Origin: a virus
Lineage: Duplodnaviria > Heunggongvirae > Uroviricota > Caudoviricetes
Direction: 5' to 3' (one strand)
Length of the DNA: 30,236 bases
IMG/VR virus record: IMGVR_UViG_2597489893_000002
Coordinates: 1 to 30,236 of that record
Positions within the stretch are counted from its first letter, which is position 1. Each line of letters begins with the position of its first letter. Position numbers and translations under genes: made by a program. The notes under the pieces were generated by a model. The model ran no database searches. It saw nothing but the letters and a program-made list of their open reading frames with translations, and had not been told where the DNA came from. Shown in pieces: positions 11,871 to 19,023 of this stretch.

Positions 11871-11978
11871 TTACTGTTTCCTGAGTGCTTCTATGACGCC
11901 AGCAATACCGCCTAAAACTATGCCAGCAATGACAACGAGAACAATTGGATGCTTGTCAGCAAAATCCCAGAAGCCCAT
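11871..11978 (-). CDS. small hydrophobic membrane peptide, 35 aa
   Basis: ATG overlaps upstream stop as TGATG; one predicted TM helix (IVLVVIAGIVLGGIAGVI). Below the 60-aa ORF-track cutoff; found by manual translation. Confidence 0.45.
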   Translation of the reverse strand: MGFWDFADKHPIVLVVIAGIVLGGIAGVIEALRKQ

Positions 11979-12142
11979 CACTGATCCTTAGAAGCTGTTT
12001 TTAATATCGGCCATACCAATGTTACAGCTACTGCCACCAACGCCCCGTCCGATAAAACTGACAGGATTGTGCTGGTGAAATCCACCAGCACGGACAGCAA
12101 GAGAAAACCAATGGCGATTGCGATACGTGCCTTGCTTGCCAT
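11978..12142 (-). CDS. small membrane protein, 54 aa
   Basis: ATG overlaps the TerB-like gene stop as TAATG. Two hydrophobic segments. Manual translation. Confidence 0.5.
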   Translation of the reverse strand: MASKARIAIAIGFLLLSVLVDFTSTILSVLSDGALVAVAVTLVWPILKTASKDQ

Positions 12143-12576
12143 TACAGATAATCTTCCACACGAAGACCTAAACGACGGCCTACTTCTTCCAGTACTTTGT
12201 GTTCTGCTGGCTCGATTTCACCGTCCGCTTCTGCAATTGTCAGCATGTTAACGAATACTTCTTCCGCTTCTTTTGGATCGTTTTTGATATCTTCAATTTC
12301 GCGAAGGATATTCATGCGACCAACACGGAAGCCAGCTTCCAGTTGCTCGGTAAAGCGGGTAATTGTTGCAGTAATTTCGTTACCAAAATGACTAAGACGC
12401 GGATTAGAGCGGACAAGCTGATCAAGTTTCGCTGTTTCTTCTTTTTCGATTTCACCATCAGCGGCAGACACCAACAAACAGCCACCGATAATGGCCTCCA
12501 TCAGATCGCGATTCTCAACTTTTTTCAGCTCTACTTTTGCAGAAGCGACTTTCTTGCCGAACAATTTACCGAACAT
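12142..12576 (-). CDS. tciA: TerB-family (tellurite-resistance-like) protein, 144 aa
   Basis: Two-repeat TerB layout with AADGEIEKEE and AEADGEIEPAEHKVLEEVGRRLGL signatures. Position next to tRNA genes and ban matches P1 tciA. Confidence 0.8.
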   Translation of the reverse strand: MFGKLFGKKVASAKVELKKVENRDLMEAIIGGCLLVSAADGEIEKEETAKLDQLVRSNPRLSHFGNEITATITRFTEQLEAGFRVGRMNILREIEDIKNDPKEAEEVFVNMLTIAEADGEIEPAEHKVLEEVGRRLGLRVEDYL

Positions 12577-12769: not shown

Positions 12770-13508
12770 GATATGAACCCGTTACAGGAGAATGCTCTTA
12801 CCTGTTACGTGCTCCGTTTCGTGGAGCTAACGGCGGGTGATCGGGCCGCACCAGACTGGACTTATTTCAGCGTTATGCTCATGCCAGAGAATCAAACTGT
12901 GATGGTCGGTGCTGAACTCCGACACAGGGTTGTAGCAAGCCCCGCAAAGCGCGCACTACTGTAGTTGCGGCACATCAGCCTGTGCATTCACCACAATGTT
13001 GAGAACACTGGTTGTCACGCTGCAACGCAACATTTATTCGTAGATTGGGATATGACCCCGTTACGCCAGTGTTCTCAACGTTGTAGTGCCGGTTACGGTT
13101 CCGGCCAGGCCTCTTCCTCAACGGGGTGTTCTCCATACGGACTACCGTTTATTGGTCGTTCCTGCGGTTTATGTTGTGAAGCCAGATGCTTATCTTCTGG
13201 TTGCTTCAAAGAGCTGCACTTCATCACAACGGTAAGAGCACTCGATGCATTTAAGCCAAGCTCCATAAGGGAGAATGCCCTTACCTGTTGTGTTGTGATG
13301 ACCGGTGCTGATCTCCGGCTTGCGGTTATTTCAGACTCTCACGGGCGTTTAATTGCCCCGCCGAACAGCTCTTTTCCGCAATAGCTGCAATGTCTTTCGC
13401 GCATCAGCCTGCGCATTCATCACAACGGTAAGGGTACTTCGTAGGGATTCGAACCCTCTGCCAAGCTCGGCGATCTCCGACGTCGCAAAATACCCTTACC
13501 TGTTGTGC
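12770..13508. repeat. repeat-rich tRNA-like non-coding stretch
   Basis: Recurring motifs cccttacctgttg (13278, 13493, 13932; variant 12787), gtagattgggatatga(a/c)cccgttac (two copies), catcagcctg(t/c)gcattca(c/t)cacaa (two copies). One long hairpin (13421-13500) contains a tRNA T-arm-like GGGTTCGAATCCC on the - strand but does not fold as a canonical cloverleaf. Confidence 0.4.
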
Positions 13509-13584
13509 TGGTGCCGATTAACGGACTCGAACCGCTGACATCCTGCTTACAAGGCAGGCGCTCTACCAACTGAGCTAAACCGGC
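13509..13584 (-). tRNA. tRNA-Thr (anticodon UGU)
   Basis: 76-nt cloverleaf on - strand: acceptor GCCGGTT/AATCGGC, anticodon loop CTTGTAA, T-loop TTCGAGT, CCA end. Confidence 0.88.
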
Positions 13585-13586
13585 AT

Positions 13587-13662
13587 TGGCGATGGTGAAT
13601 GGATTTGAACCATCGACCCGTTGATTAACAGTCAACCGCTCTAACCGCTGAGCTACACCATC
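13587..13662 (-). tRNA. tRNA-Asn (anticodon GUU)
   Basis: 76-nt cloverleaf on - strand: anticodon arm GTTGA-CTGTTAA-TCAAC, T-loop TTCAAAT, CCA end. Separated from tRNA-Thr by 2 nt. Confidence 0.88.
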
Positions 13663-14316
13663 ACTTGCCGGGTACGTCTCCGGCGAGGGCTTCCACCTCC
13701 GTATGCTTTTCGGCGCACCTCGCCCTAGCTGCAATTCGGTAACAGGGGATGCACAACCCTGGCTTCCAGCGTGATTAGCGCCTTCAGCATGACGGGATAT
13801 ACCCGTAAATTCGTGGAACTGTACCCAAAGTGCTGTTAAGCACCGCTGTTACGCTGAAAAGAAAACGCAACAGGAAAGGACGCTGACCAACAGATGGCCC
13901 CTTCTCGTTCATCTGGTTAATCACACCAGCGCCCTTACCTGTTGTGCCTCCCCGTTCCCTAATACACAGACGGGGACACTCTGCGGTCGATTTTTTGACG
14001 GGGGACGACTCATACCCCGTGGCATCTGGCTTCTTAGGCCGCTACCATCATAAGATCATCGTTTGCATTTACTTTAATGGTCAGTTTCTAAACCGCCGCA
14101 AAGTCGCTAACCATGACGAAAACCCTGAAAAAAACGCCCACCCGAAGATGGGCAAACTGGAAGCTCGTAACGCACTTCGGCGTTGCCACTTAGGCGCATG
14201 GTCAACCTGGCAACTCGGTGGTTTGTCTGGGAGGACTAGGCCCAGCCATGCTTACCGCCGCGCCTGTCGCGGCTAACAGCTAAATCGCTCTATAAATCAC
14301 GATTCATTGAGGCGAT

Positions 14317-14344
14317 ATTACACTAATAAATTTATTAGAGCAAT
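14317..14344. promoter_or_regulatory. bipartite palindromic C1-operator-like site overlapping the dmt stop codon
   Basis: 14328-14344 on - strand reads ATTGCTCTAATAAATTT (17/17 to remembered consensus); 14317-14333 on + strand ATTACACTAATAAATTT (15/17). Both share the perfect palindrome ctaataaatttattag. Confidence 0.55.
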
Positions 14345-17217
14345 ATACCCAAAACGTCATGAGCTACACCTCGAGTGTCCCCCTTACAAGACACAGAACG
14401 TCTGGCAAAAAGAGGTTCCACTCTGAAGCCACTGTCATGATAAAGCTCTCTGATGTTTGGCGCGCCACTGTTAGTAATGAGAACCTTTGCACCTCGACGA
14501 TGAGCATCCGTCAACAGAGACACCAGGCGTTTTTGCTCTTCAAACTTAAAGTCATGACCGGAATAGTTCGTGAATCCCTCTGTATTTGGAAGCGGTTCAT
14601 ACGGCGGATCGCAAAAGATGACATCTCCTTCTCCGGCAGCTTCAATCACCGCTGCAAAATCACCGCATACAAACTCAGACCGCCCTTCCGCACCGAGGAA
14701 GGCTTCCATCTCCTGTAATGGGAAATACGGAGTTTTATACTTCCCATAACCGACATTGAACTCACCGGCCTGGTTGTAACGCGTCAATCCGTTAAAACAA
14801 TGTCGGTTCAGGAACAAAAACGCCGCTGCGCGATGTAAATCATCATAGACTTGTTTGTTAAACGCATTCCGTACTGCCAGGTATCCTTCCTGTGTGTTGT
14901 AGTCCTGGAAGAAACGATGTGCCAGAGTGATAAGTGAATGCGCCTCGCGTTGCAGAGTCTTGTAAAAGTTAATCAGGTCAGCATTCACATCATTTAGCAG
15001 ATTTTCCTGGTATCCGGCATTCATGAAGACAGCTCCGCCACCAACGAAAGGTTCAATCAGGCGCTTCCCTTCTGGCAAATAGCGAAAGATTTGTTCCAGA
15101 ACACCAAATTTTCCACCAGCCCATTTGAATATGGACCGTTCGAATTCTGCCGCTGGTTTAACTTTTCGCTCTTTTGTTTCACTTCCTTCTTTCTGCCGAC
15201 ATACGGCCTTAGTAATCCGATCGCCAATCCAGCGCATTACTGGTATTGCCATACTATTGCCGATCGCTTTGTAACGCGGTCCGTCAGCTGCAAGCATCGC
15301 GGCCTCTTCTTCGCTTAAATCAGGATAGTTATTGCGAAGGTATGCCAGTTCATCTGAAGAAACTTTTTTACGCTTTTCCGTAGGGATCAACGTATGCCCA
15401 TCAGGAAAACCTTGCAGCCTTTCACATTCGACAGGGGTAAGACGGCGTATTCTACCGTCGCCGAGCAATACAATTGGTGCTTCATGGTTACATGTTAAAG
15501 TTGGTGCCGAATTATCGGTTTTTATCTCAGCCCCTCCTTGCCCATGTGCCATGGCAACTATGTTTGTATCATCGCAAGATCTGATAGCGATGTTTGAAGT
15601 ATATCTGGTAGTTTCCTTCCCCTCGCCTCTGCTCGGCGCAATATCCCGGCGCACGCCTTCGAACTCAAAAAGTACCGTTGCGGGATCGAGGTCTGTTCGA
15701 GCACTTGCGACAACAAACACGCGTCGGCGTCGTTGTGCCACTCCGAAGTATTGGGCATCAAGGATTCTCCAGGCCACCTTTCGCTGCGGCCCATAAATAC
15801 AACCACACTGCGGCCACTTTGGAGCATGGCAACCGGTTTTGCCATCCCACCGCCAGAACGCGTTACTTTTTCCTGATTCAGGTCGATCACCTGGTTCAAA
15901 TGGCGCATCTTCTCCAGCCAATCCGGCAAGGAAACATCCGAAGGCGTTATCTGCCGATGACAAGACTCCTGGGACATTTTCCCAGACAATAACGGCTGGT
16001 TTGAGAAATGACTCAGCCCGTTTGTCGTCAATTGCATTTGCAAGCTCCACATACTTTAAAGTTAGCGCGCCACGCTCATCATCAAGCCCACCACGTAATC
16101 CCGCGATACTGAATGCCTGACAGTTATGGACCACCGCACCATTGAGGATATAGGAATGATCACCTTCGACTTCTATGTTGTATACAGTATCTAGGCCTAC
16201 CGATTTAAACTCTTTGACTGTTCGTAAAAGCATTCCATGAGCCAATCTTGATTTACGTGACAATTTCTGCGGGCAGATTGTTACCTGATAATAATTCCGT
16301 TGATTTACCACGCGATCCTCGATCACTTTTTTGGGCTCAACTTCAATAAAGCTGACCGAAGAAACATAACCACAAGTCTGTGACAACCCCGCAACGCCCC
16401 AAGCAAGCGCAGGACTAACACTATTAATTCTAAATCCCGCTTTACCACTTGGTGTCCCATCAGTATCAAGATAGCCTTGTAAAAACACATGACGCAATGG
16501 ATGCGACATCACCCATGCAGGGATACGCTTAGCATGGCTTAACTCGCCAAAATGTTCATTAAGCCAATTGGCATAACACGTATCATTCAAGGTTACTTTG
16601 ATGCTCCCTCGGATTTCGCTTGCCACGGAAAATATGTTTTCTGGTATGCGGCAATGAAACTTTCTCAATTTCTGGCAATTTATGCCAAAAACAACCGCCT
16701 TCTTAGATTTACCTCTCCATCTCCTAATATATCCATCGCCAACATAAGCGCCCGCAAGATACATAGCCTGTTCTTCAGACAAGAACCGAGAACAAATATC
16801 TGGAGATGCAATATTGAAATTAGTTAGAGCGCACCATTGATATCCCGGCATATCACATGCTGCTCGCCATTCCGGTTCAGACAACAACTCTCTCTTAAAA
16901 TATGTGCCATTTTTCCGGGTGTTTTGGGCTTTCCACCGAACAGCCAGGAAGGGATGGTCATTGGTTGTTCTTATACCTAAAGGCTGCCCAACGGCATTAA
17001 GTAACCCCGTATTAGCTATTTTTGAACCAACTCTTTTTACTTGTTGTAACCGCCCGAGATGACTGACTACGTAATCGCCAGGGCAAACATCTTCTATTGG
17101 TTTATAACCATTTTTACAAAGAACCATATGCCCCGCGGTAAAACATGGTGTTCCCCCGACGAGCACGTCAGGGGATTCGATTTCCCCAGCCAAGACTTTT
17201 TTGGCAAGTTTTGTCAT
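14335..17217 (-). CDS. dmt: DNA methyltransferase, fused C5-cytosine MTase (intein-containing) plus Dam-type N6-adenine MTase; main ORF lacking motif I
   Basis: After the intein: CQAFSIAG (motif IV with upstream GGTP), ENVPGV (VI), QRRRRVFVV (VIII), RRLTPVECERLQGFPD (IX), KAIGNSMAIPV (X). C-terminal 270 aa is Dam-like (FKWAGGK, EPFVGGGAVF, DPPY). The ORF begins only 24 codons before PC; motif I is in the upstream fragment. Confidence 0.85.
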   Translation of the reverse strand: MTKLAKKVLAGEIESPDVLVGGTPCFTAGHMVLCKNGYKPIEDVCPGDYVVSHLGRLQQVKRVGSKIANTGLLNAVGQPLGIRTTNDHPFLAVRWKAQNTRKNGTYFKRELLSEPEWRAACDMPGYQWCALTNFNIASPDICSRFLSEEQAMYLAGAYVGDGYIRRWRGKSKKAVVFGINCQKLRKFHCRIPENIFSVASEIRGSIKVTLNDTCYANWLNEHFGELSHAKRIPAWVMSHPLRHVFLQGYLDTDGTPSGKAGFRINSVSPALAWGVAGLSQTCGYVSSVSFIEVEPKKVIEDRVVNQRNYYQVTICPQKLSRKSRLAHGMLLRTVKEFKSVGLDTVYNIEVEGDHSYILNGAVVHNCQAFSIAGLRGGLDDERGALTLKYVELANAIDDKRAESFLKPAVIVWENVPGVLSSADNAFGCFLAGLAGEDAPFEPGDRPESGKSNAFWRWDGKTGCHAPKWPQCGCIYGPQRKVAWRILDAQYFGVAQRRRRVFVVASARTDLDPATVLFEFEGVRRDIAPSRGEGKETTRYTSNIAIRSCDDTNIVAMAHGQGGAEIKTDNSAPTLTCNHEAPIVLLGDGRIRRLTPVECERLQGFPDGHTLIPTEKRKKVSSDELAYLRNNYPDLSEEEAAMLAADGPRYKAIGNSMAIPVMRWIGDRITKAVCRQKEGSETKERKVKPAAEFERSIFKWAGGKFGVLEQIFRYLPEGKRLIEPFVGGGAVFMNAGYQENLLNDVNADLINFYKTLQREAHSLITLAHRFFQDYNTQEGYLAVRNAFNKQVYDDLHRAAAFLFLNRHCFNGLTRYNQAGEFNVGYGKYKTPYFPLQEMEAFLGAEGRSEFVCGDFAAVIEAAGEGDVIFCDPPYEPLPNTEGFTNYSGHDFKFEEQKRLVSLLTDAHRRGAKVLITNSGAPNIRELYHDSGFRVEPLFARRSVSCKGDTRGVAHDVLGILL
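16123..17145 (-). other. intein with LAGLIDADG homing-endonuclease domain, 341 aa, in frame within dmt
   Basis: Starts with Cys (CFTAGHMVL, block A), block B IRTTNDHPFL, two LAGLIDADG motifs (YLAGAYVGDGY, FLQGYLDTDGT), block F/G VYNIEVEGDHSYILNGAVVHN followed by Cys+1. Removal restores GGTP-CQAFSIAG. Confidence 0.85.
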
Positions 17218-17227
17218 TTCGCCCCGC

Positions 17228-17255
17228 GGGGGGGGGGGGGGGGGGCGGGGGGGGG
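17228..17255. repeat. G18-C-G9 homopolymer tract interrupting the dmt coding sequence
   Basis: Read directly from the sequence. On the coding strand it is a C-run that would encode poly-Pro. Frames on either side are offset so motif I and motif IV are not in one frame. Confidence 0.95.
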
Positions 17256-17390
17256 CCAGCGGAGCGCAAGAACGGCCGATGGAAAAGGCTCGATTTCAGC
17301 AAACCAAACCGGACGCATACCCAACGGTTCCCAGGCAATACTCGCGGCTTCAATTCCACTGCAAACAGATCCATAGCACAGCTCTTTCAC
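17256..17390 (-). CDS. dmt: 5-prime fragment of dmt carrying C5-MTase motif I
   Basis: GTG start overlapping the RdgC-homologue stop (GTGA). Translation [45 protein letters not shown] matches the motif I region of a C5-MTase subfamily as remembered; the frame is lost in the poly-G tract. Confidence 0.6.
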
Positions 17391-18292
17391 TGCTTAGCCT
17401 CTCCACCAAGGGCATTTACCAGAGCATCAACCAGGCACGAAATTTCACTGGTCAATAGGAAGAAATCTGCGTCCAGTCGCTGCGCAACATCTTCACTATC
17501 AATATCAGAGTTCTGCTCAAGCAATTCATCCGCAAAATTGACGCTGGTAATGCTGAAGTTATGGTCCAGTGTAAATTTAATGCGGTTCTGCCAGTCGAGT
17601 GCCAACTTAGTGACGAGCTTGCCAGCTTCCAGGTGTGTGGAAATTTCATCGCTTCCCAAATCCTGCTTTTTCACTCGGGCGATACCGCCATCCTCAAGCA
17701 CTGCCTTAAGTTCTGCCGCATCCCCCATTTGAAATCCCTGTGGAGCACTAGCATCACGTACCCAGTCGGTCAGCGTTAACTCAATGGGATTTTCAACACT
17801 TAGTGGCACAACAGGAAGAGAACCCAGAGACTTACGCATAAGCGCGAGCATATCCTCTGCCTGCCGCGCGCTGGCATTGATATAGATACGTTTAGTTGAA
17901 CCGTCGTAGATCGCCTGGATAACAGAAAACTTTGAAAAAGCCCGTGGCAGAAGAGAATGCAGAACTTCGTCTTTCAGGGAGTCCTTCTCTGTTTTCTTCA
18001 GTTTACGCGCTTGTTCTTGCTCAAGTTTTTCAATTTTTTCTTGAATAGCTCGCTGGATAACCGGCGGGGGAAGAATTTTTGTTTCGCGCTTTGCTTCAAC
18101 AAGGATAAAACCATTTCCATGCATAGCGATAACTTCGGAATTATCACCAAATGGCGATACAAAACCGAACTTGGCCATATCCTGACTACCGCATGGCGTG
18201 AAAAGGATCATTTTCTTTTTATCTTCTAAGTCGGTCAGATCCGCCTCACGAGAAAGTTTATAAATAGTAATATTTTTCCAGTGCTTAAACAT
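17387..18292 (-). CDS. hrdC: RdgC-family recombination-associated protein, 302 aa
   Basis: High similarity by eye to E. coli RdgC along its length ([13 protein letters not shown]..., [44 protein letters not shown]). Start taken at the internal ATG ([13 protein letters not shown]) rather than the track start at 18406. Confidence 0.88.
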
Positions 18293-18570
18293 GTTGTAAC
18301 CCTTGAATATCAACCACAGAAAGCTCGTCTTTGTAGAAAAAGGCCAAGTTGTGGCACCCCCTCGTTTGAGCGTATGAGCTGGGACCAATTTCGTTCTTCC
18401 AGACAAATGGCTTCAAATCCGTACGGCGAAGCATAAAAACGCGATTTGTTCCGCTCTGATTCCCAATGAGGCAAAAGCCTTCTTTCACCTTGATAGCCTG
18501 CAAGTTGTCGAGTTCACCGCTGGTTACACGGCTATCGAACTCCTTGCGGCTTATTAGCTCCATCTGCATC
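18285..18570 (-). CDS. hypothetical protein, about 95 aa, upstream of the RdgC homologue
   Basis: ORF ends 8 nt inside the rdgC-like start; start taken at MQMELIS (18570); operator-like site lies upstream. No motif recognised. Confidence 0.5.
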
Positions 18571-18640
18571 TGACGACTCCAAACAAATGCCCATTGAAGG
18601 GCGATGGCTGAATGGTACCGAAAACACGATATAAAAAACA

Positions 18641-18657
18641 ATATTTATTAGAGCAAT
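18641..18657 (-). promoter_or_regulatory. C1-operator-like 17-mer in the divergent region heading the - strand operon
   Basis: Read on - strand ATTGCTCTAATAAATAT, 16/17 to remembered consensus. Confidence 0.5.
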
Positions 18658-18738
18658 TTTGTAATAAGTAAACGCCATACAGACCACAAATAACCTAAGT
18701 TAAAATAACGAAAATCAGAGCAAATCATTGGTGACGAC

Positions 18739-19023
18739 GTGGCAAGTATTGCAACAAAAGACAGCATTTGTTCGGGGCACGGAGGATTCCCATCCAGGCC
18801 TCCTGTAGAGAGTGAACCACTACTTAAAGTCAACGGAGTCGAAGTGTTAGTTGATGGTAAGCAATATGCACAGCATACCGATGGAAACAGTACGCACGGT
18901 GGGCAAGCTATATCAACCAGGGCATGGTTTACCGTCAATGGTAAAGGGATCGTATGCGTTGGTGACCCTGTTTCATGCGGATCTACCGTAGCGTCCGGAG
19001 ACGGCCTAGTTCAGGTAAGTTAG
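18739..19023 (+). CDS. PAAR-motif-like small protein (possible spike tip), 94 aa
   Basis: GTG start; Gly/Cys pattern CSGHGG, VNGVEV, STHGG, VNGKGIVCVGDPVSCGSTVASGDG resembles PAAR repeat proteins. Start codon uncertain. Confidence 0.45.
   Translation: MASIATKDSICSGHGGFPSRPPVESEPLLKVNGVEVLVDGKQYAQHTDGNSTHGGQAISTRAWFTVNGKGIVCVGDPVSCGSTVASGDGLVQVS

Follow-up and report, generated by a model that had tools for sequence, protein, structure and literature searches.

A C1 operator corresponding to Op72ab at the end of dmt in a phage P1-like genome, and the ban operon downstream of it

The DNA analyzed here, called the window throughout, is a single stretch of 30,236 nucleotides from a Caudoviricetes record (IMG/VR accession no. 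IMGVR_UViG_2597489893_000002, positions 1 to 30,236). Between positions 13300 and 15300, the window is 100% identical to Escherichia phage P1 under accession no. OP279344 and 99.2% identical to P1 under accession no. AF234172/NC_005856; for other parts of the window, identity to the best P1 record is 98.3% (400-4500) and 99.5% (14300-18800). Judged from these alignments, the window comes either from P1 itself or from a P1-like element very close to it, and it is no exact copy of a deposited genome. The conventional forward direction of P1 corresponds to the minus strand of the window. To place known features, the AF234172 annotation was mapped by a locus offset of +9410, which was checked by an identical 81-bp alignment around the site described below.

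The region of interest lies at the end of dmt, on the minus strand. This gene belongs to the uhr-hrdC-dmt unit, which is driven by Pdmt, and its open reading frame ends at 14335, with the TAA stop codon at 14337-14335. Beyond it, on the same strand, tRNA scans and the annotation place tRNA-Asn (13587-13662) and tRNA-Thr (13509-13584) as the first genes of the ban operon. Open reading frames and the annotation then give tciA (12142-12576, minus strand), tciB (11978-12142, minus strand), and tciC (11871-11978, minus strand), followed by a tRNA with the anticodon CAT (11792-11867, minus strand), called tRNA-Met by ARAGORN and tRNA-Ile2 (ileX-like) in reference P1, and by ban, which encodes a DnaB-type helicase (10141-11505, minus strand, from open reading frames and annotation). 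On the minus strand, dbn comes after ban.

Outside the operator, the host element differs slightly from reference P1: its dmt is longer and contains an intein-like insert, a poly-C tract is present, and the content near 13300-13409 is different. The insert, of about 340 amino acids with Pfam Hint_2 and LAGLIDADG_3 domains, lies inside dmt at about 16123-17145 (minus strand), exactly at the catalytic motif GTPC|QAFS (PC|Q) of the C5-cytosine methylase half of Dmt; it is absent from the Dmt of reference P1 (754 amino acids), and OP279344 annotates a Dmt of 1013 amino acids. Farther toward the 5' end of dmt, at 17222-17255 (minus strand; poly-G on the plus strand), the poly-C-rich sequence CCCCCCCCCGCCCCCCCCCCCCCCCCCGCGGGGCGAA stands in place of the 20 nt ...CCCATGTCGCCAACCTTGGCGAC of P1 OP279344. 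This is a net gain of 14 nt that shifts the reading frame at the 5' end of dmt, and it could be either a sequencing or assembly artifact or a real lesion. At about 15535-15580 (Dmt amino acids ~546-560), the center of Dmt, between the two methylase halves, has no relation to the corresponding ~94 amino acids of the reference Dmt and is far shorter, which suggests, from the sequence comparison, a swapped variable or target-recognition segment. Between tRNA-Thr and tciA, positions 13300-13432 share 99 to 100% identity with two lambdoid phages, mEp460 and IME207, but do not align to reference AF234172, for which the alignment starts at window position 13409 and which has upl and plp there. This segment resembles a mosaic joint, different from one P1 strain to another.

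At 14317-14344, the plus strand reads attacactaataaatttattagagcaat. The minus-strand form of this 28-bp element is ATTGCTCTAATAAATTTATTAGTGTAAT, an imperfect palindrome in which 24 of the 28 positions are self-complementary and which includes a perfectly palindromic stretch of 16 bp, ctaataaatttattag (14323-14338). The published consensus for operators of the P1 repressor C1 is an asymmetric 17-bp sequence, ATTGCTCTAATAAATTT, and 22 C1 operators are counted on the genome (PMC8546580). In a mismatch-tolerant motif search of the whole 30-kb window, this 17-mer was found exactly, with 0 mismatches, at 14328-14344 on the minus strand, where the initial annotation had reported a perfect copy. The same search returned the near-consensus copy that had been claimed to lie on the plus strand through the palindrome: it is ATTACACTAATAAATTT at 14317-14333, with 2 mismatches (G4A and T6A). 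The two 17-mers, referred to as the a-site (minus strand) and the b-site (plus strand), share a 6-bp core, AAATTT, in inverted orientation. The element thus has the layout of a bivalent operator, with inverted 17-mers that overlap by 6 bp in an incomplete 28-bp palindrome. The distance between the centers of the two sites is 11 bp, close to one helical turn, which would put two C1 molecules on roughly the same face of the helix.

The initial annotation allowed that the consensus it used might be wrong; that sequence agrees both with the published one (PMC8546580) and with our own derivation from annotated operators, since majority rule returns ATTGCTCTAATAAATTT whether it is applied to the six operators of the window or to 11, with Op99a-e included. 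Among the 11 annotated P1 operators compared, Op72a, the a-site, is the only one without a mismatch. From base composition, about 4.6e-6 exact 17-mer matches would be expected. At a threshold of no more than 3 mismatches, 6 matches were observed where 0.14 would be expected, and all of 100 shuffled sequences fell short of 6. All six are annotated C1 operators, without a false positive in 30 kb. Besides the a- and b-sites, they comprise near-consensus matches at Op86b (OpmgR; 583-599, plus strand), Op86a (OpmgR; 632-648, minus strand), and Op82 (O26; 4256-4272, plus strand), together with Op68 (Odmt), the upstream C1 operator at Pdmt, which was found by motif search and annotation at 18641-18657 on the minus strand with 1 mismatch.

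Compared with other P1 operators, the element resembles the monovalent ones (Op68/Odmt, Op82/O26, Op86a,b/OpmgR, and Op99c-e) in using the same 17-bp asymmetric consensus; these typically overlap promoter hexamers. They are, however, single sites that each carry at least one mismatch (nine compared), whereas Op72a is perfect and has a partner site next to it. The layout recurs in Op99ab (Oc1ab), located at 94166-94193 in AF234172 at the c1 promoter of P1, which likewise consists of inverted 17-bp sites overlapping by 6 bp in a 28-bp element placed over a promoter. Op99ab is far more degenerate, with 3 mismatches in its a half, 7 in its b half, and 16 of 28 positions symmetric, against 0, 2, and 24 of 28 in Op72ab. 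It autoregulates c1, whereas Op72ab serves a lytic operon.

The element coincides with a deposited feature. Positions 68667-68694 of AF234172 correspond to 14317-14344 of the window and are annotated as the divalent C1-controlled operator Obanab, formerly Op72ab, which controls ban; its monovalent components are annotated as Obana (14328-14344, minus strand) and Obanb (14317-14333, plus strand), and in the P7 record the corresponding features are Op(ban[a]) and Op(ban[b]). The 28 bp, their location at the stop codon of dmt, the way they overlap the hexamers of the promoter P1ban, and the downstream genes are the same in Op72ab (Obanab) of P1 (AF234172/NC_005856; P7 Op(ban)) and in the window. 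The gene for the repressor itself lies outside the 30-kb window; in reference P1, where the site is identical, c1 (c1.100) is found at 93231-94082. As had been proposed, the operator overlaps the end of dmt: the TAA stop codon falls within the a-site, and the last three dmt codons, ATA TTG CTC (I-L-L), are also inside the operator. The accompanying statement that the site lies between dmt and the tRNA-tci-ban genes holds for the downstream side, since the site is upstream of those genes, about 650 bp before tRNA-Asn; on the other side, the operator is not intergenic and extends over the last three codons and the stop codon of dmt.

In the AF234172 annotation, the operator also lies over a promoter. 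P1ban has its -35 hexamer, TTGCTC, at 14338-14343 (minus strand), inside the a-site, and its -10 hexamer, TAATAT, at 14315-14320 (minus strand), separated by a spacer of 17 nt. The a-site therefore contains the -35 hexamer, and the b-site reaches into the -10, as TAATAT starts within the last four bases of that site. A generic sigma-70 scan of 13700-14800 called no promoter and missed P1ban because only 7 of 12 hexamer positions match the consensus; P1ban is too weak for such a scan, so the promoter call is taken from the annotation. A further sigma-70 promoter, P2ban, is predicted in the AF234172 annotation at 14329-14360 (minus strand), with the -10 at 14329-14334 and the -35 at 14355-14360. 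The proposal that repressor controls the helicase operon from an internal promoter agrees with the placement of Obanab and P1ban here in AF234172, with the tRNAs, tci genes, and ban downstream; ban is also listed among C1-controlled genes, with induction measured after heat inactivation of C1.100 (PMC4713147). In the text of a transcriptome paper (PMC8201110), ban, tciA, and dmt are absent.

Because the palindrome sits at the end of a gene, we considered whether it acts in the RNA, as a terminator of dmt or a stabilizing 3' hairpin, and not as a protein site. The corresponding RNA hairpin has a folding energy of -16.3 kcal/mol (z = -3.7 relative to shuffled sequences) and is located exactly at the dmt stop codon, but any DNA palindrome yields an RNA hairpin of this kind, and a terminator has no need of a base-for-base match to the C1 consensus. 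The stem is nearly all A-U, and the next bases, CGCCUCAAUG, contain no U-run. A terminator scan passed over the palindrome yet flagged a GC hairpin at 14154-14128. A Rho-independent terminator at the palindrome was rejected, as the GC-rich stem and U-run that define one are lacking and the scan was negative at this position. We regard a role in the RNA in place of protein binding as very improbable.

To follow the site among related elements and avoid selecting on the operator sequence, a collection of viral contigs was scanned with a pattern made only of flanking sequence, in which 55 bases were left free; the 87 matches obtained were combined with 8 loci from annotated records, giving 95 loci with 32 distinct 88-mers. 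The 28-mer is identical in 88 of the 95 and carries a single substitution in the other 7, and the P1ban -10 hexamer is invariant; across the same loci, 8 of the 9 free upstream bases and most of the 8 bases past the -10 are polymorphic. The pattern is the same in seven P1-like elements with identities down to 88%: the 28-mer is kept in all, with a single base changed in just one element, while variation is seen in the adjacent upstream dmt codons and directly after the -10. Among plasmid records, about 490 contain the site, these being P1-like phage-plasmids of Escherichia, Salmonella, Klebsiella, and Shigella; 18 phage records contain it as well. At the corresponding locus of phage D6, which shares the tRNA region with P1 but not dmt, no operator match was found at 3 or fewer mismatches. 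The site is thus conserved in the P1/P7 immunity group and absent from D6, which we take to be a heteroimmune relative; lacking a P1-type operator, D6 gives no independent evidence on the architecture. The compared loci are close relatives (at least 88% identity), and their conservation is therefore suggestive and not decisive.

Conservation nevertheless bears on the last three Dmt codons, which the operator would also appear to fix, as they are frozen along with the stop codon. It also bears on the two deviating positions of the b half, which are invariant in all 95 loci. One of these mismatches is the first T of TAATAT, and a b half that followed the consensus would give CAATAT. Promoter function would then hold this T in place, which may explain why the b half never goes back to consensus. 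For the element as a whole, the notion that it is a chance AT-rich palindrome without function can practically be dismissed. It is true that the region is AT-rich and that short palindromes are common, but the very low expectation for a 17/17 match, the failure of any shuffled sequence to reach the observed motif count, the near invariance of the 28-mer amid variable flanks, and the annotation of the operator in both P1 and P7 all argue otherwise.

We conclude that 14317-14344 is almost certainly Op72ab (Obanab), the bivalent operator through which the C1 repressor of phage P1 represses P1ban and the ban operon. This identification follows from the consensus match, from the exact agreement in position with the operator and promoter annotated in AF234172, from the order of the genes, and from the selective conservation; the function is taken from that annotation and from two secondary papers (PMC4713147 and PMC8546580). 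Work on C1 at this operator was reportedly carried out in the Schuster laboratory in 1987-89, and mutational analysis reportedly showed that Op72 has two sites. Each 17-mer is bound by a C1 monomer, and C1 repression is made tighter by the co-repressor Lxc/Bof. In a lysogen, C1 on both halves would cover the -35 and the -10 and exclude RNA polymerase from P1ban, and the leader, tRNA-Asn, tRNA-Thr, tciABC, tRNA-Ile/Met(CAT), and ban would all be silent; once C1 is inactivated, P1ban would become active early in lytic growth. Promoter occlusion is the best-supported mechanism, with the occupancy by two C1 molecules and the occlusion itself being steps that we infer.

Another possibility is that C1 at Op72ab, besides occluding P1ban, acts mainly as a roadblock to transcription that reads through from Pdmt into the ban operon. 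The arrangement would allow this, as dmt and the ban operon are co-directional, no terminator lies between them, and the operator is at the very end of dmt. Op68 sits at Pdmt, however, so read-through across dmt toward the ban operon is also under C1 control, and with Pdmt repressed in this way, a lysogen would have little read-through left to stop. Occlusion is also favored as the primary role by the exact alignment of the a- and b-sites with the two hexamers of P1ban, and a roadblock would be an added function and no true alternative. We therefore consider it distinctly unlikely that roadblocking is the main activity, and we retain occlusion of P1ban as the preferred mechanism.

Downstream of P1ban, the first transcribed sequence would be the leader of the ban operon (14125-14308, minus strand), which AF234172 annotates as a "dicF-like region" and which aligns to the ydfC-dicB spacer of E. 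coli K-12. By BLAST and alignment, the leader shares ~77% identity over about 95 nt (14178-14272) with Qin prophage sequence of E. coli K-12 that directly precedes mature DicF, and this part is also similar to sequences next to dicB in lambdoid phages. A search for DicF itself (Rfam RF00039) gave no match at an E value of 1 or below in window positions 13300-14500; the K-12 locus scores 76.7 bits in the Rfam scan. Only the segment upstream of DicF is therefore homologous, and a different hairpin replaces DicF in P1. That hairpin, the one flagged by the terminator scan on the minus strand, resembles an intrinsic terminator, with a GC stem and a TTCG loop (14154-14135) followed by T7 to position 14128. 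It lies ~180 nt downstream of P1ban and about 470 nt before tRNA-Asn, and it is kept in the seven P1-like elements and in D6. The predicted fold of the ~184-nt leader as a whole is not clearly better than that of shuffled sequences (z = -1.7).

The likeness to the dicBF operon of the Qin prophage (a DicA-repressed promoter, ydfABC, the DicF small RNA [sRNA], and dicB) extends to the arrangement, in that both operons have a repressor-controlled promoter and a leader, with a terminator hairpin in the equivalent position ahead of genes that are linked to the inhibition of cell division. It is confined to the leader at the sequence level, however; the repressor and operator are unrelated, and mature DicF is not conserved in P1.

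The strong terminator-like hairpin between P1ban and the tRNA and ban genes may affect how much of the P1ban transcript reaches ban. It raises the possibility that Op72ab primarily controls a stand-alone C1-repressed sRNA or attenuator with a new 3' domain, with the tRNAs and ban expressed through regulated read-through of the terminator. P1ban would then first yield a leader of ~180 nt, of which about 95 nt would be DicF-precursor-like, ending at the GC hairpin and T7. We consider this reading unlikely. The first target gated by this known operator, the leader, may have gone uncharacterized so far.

The operator and its interpretation are already known, and the present result is a rediscovery that puts forward no new hypothesis. 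Its use is that of a positive control, in which a genuine operator, one defined by experiment, was picked out from the bare sequence and assigned its correct target. To what was known, it makes small additions: the operator and the -10 appear frozen across ~95 P1-like elements amid drifting flanks, the final Dmt codons would be dictated by the operator, and one b-half mismatch would double as the T of the -10. The leader, the dmt insert, and the poly-C tract are of more interest than the operator. For the biology of P1, the site is the control point, already present in the reference annotation, that silences the DnaB-type helicase operon in lysogens.
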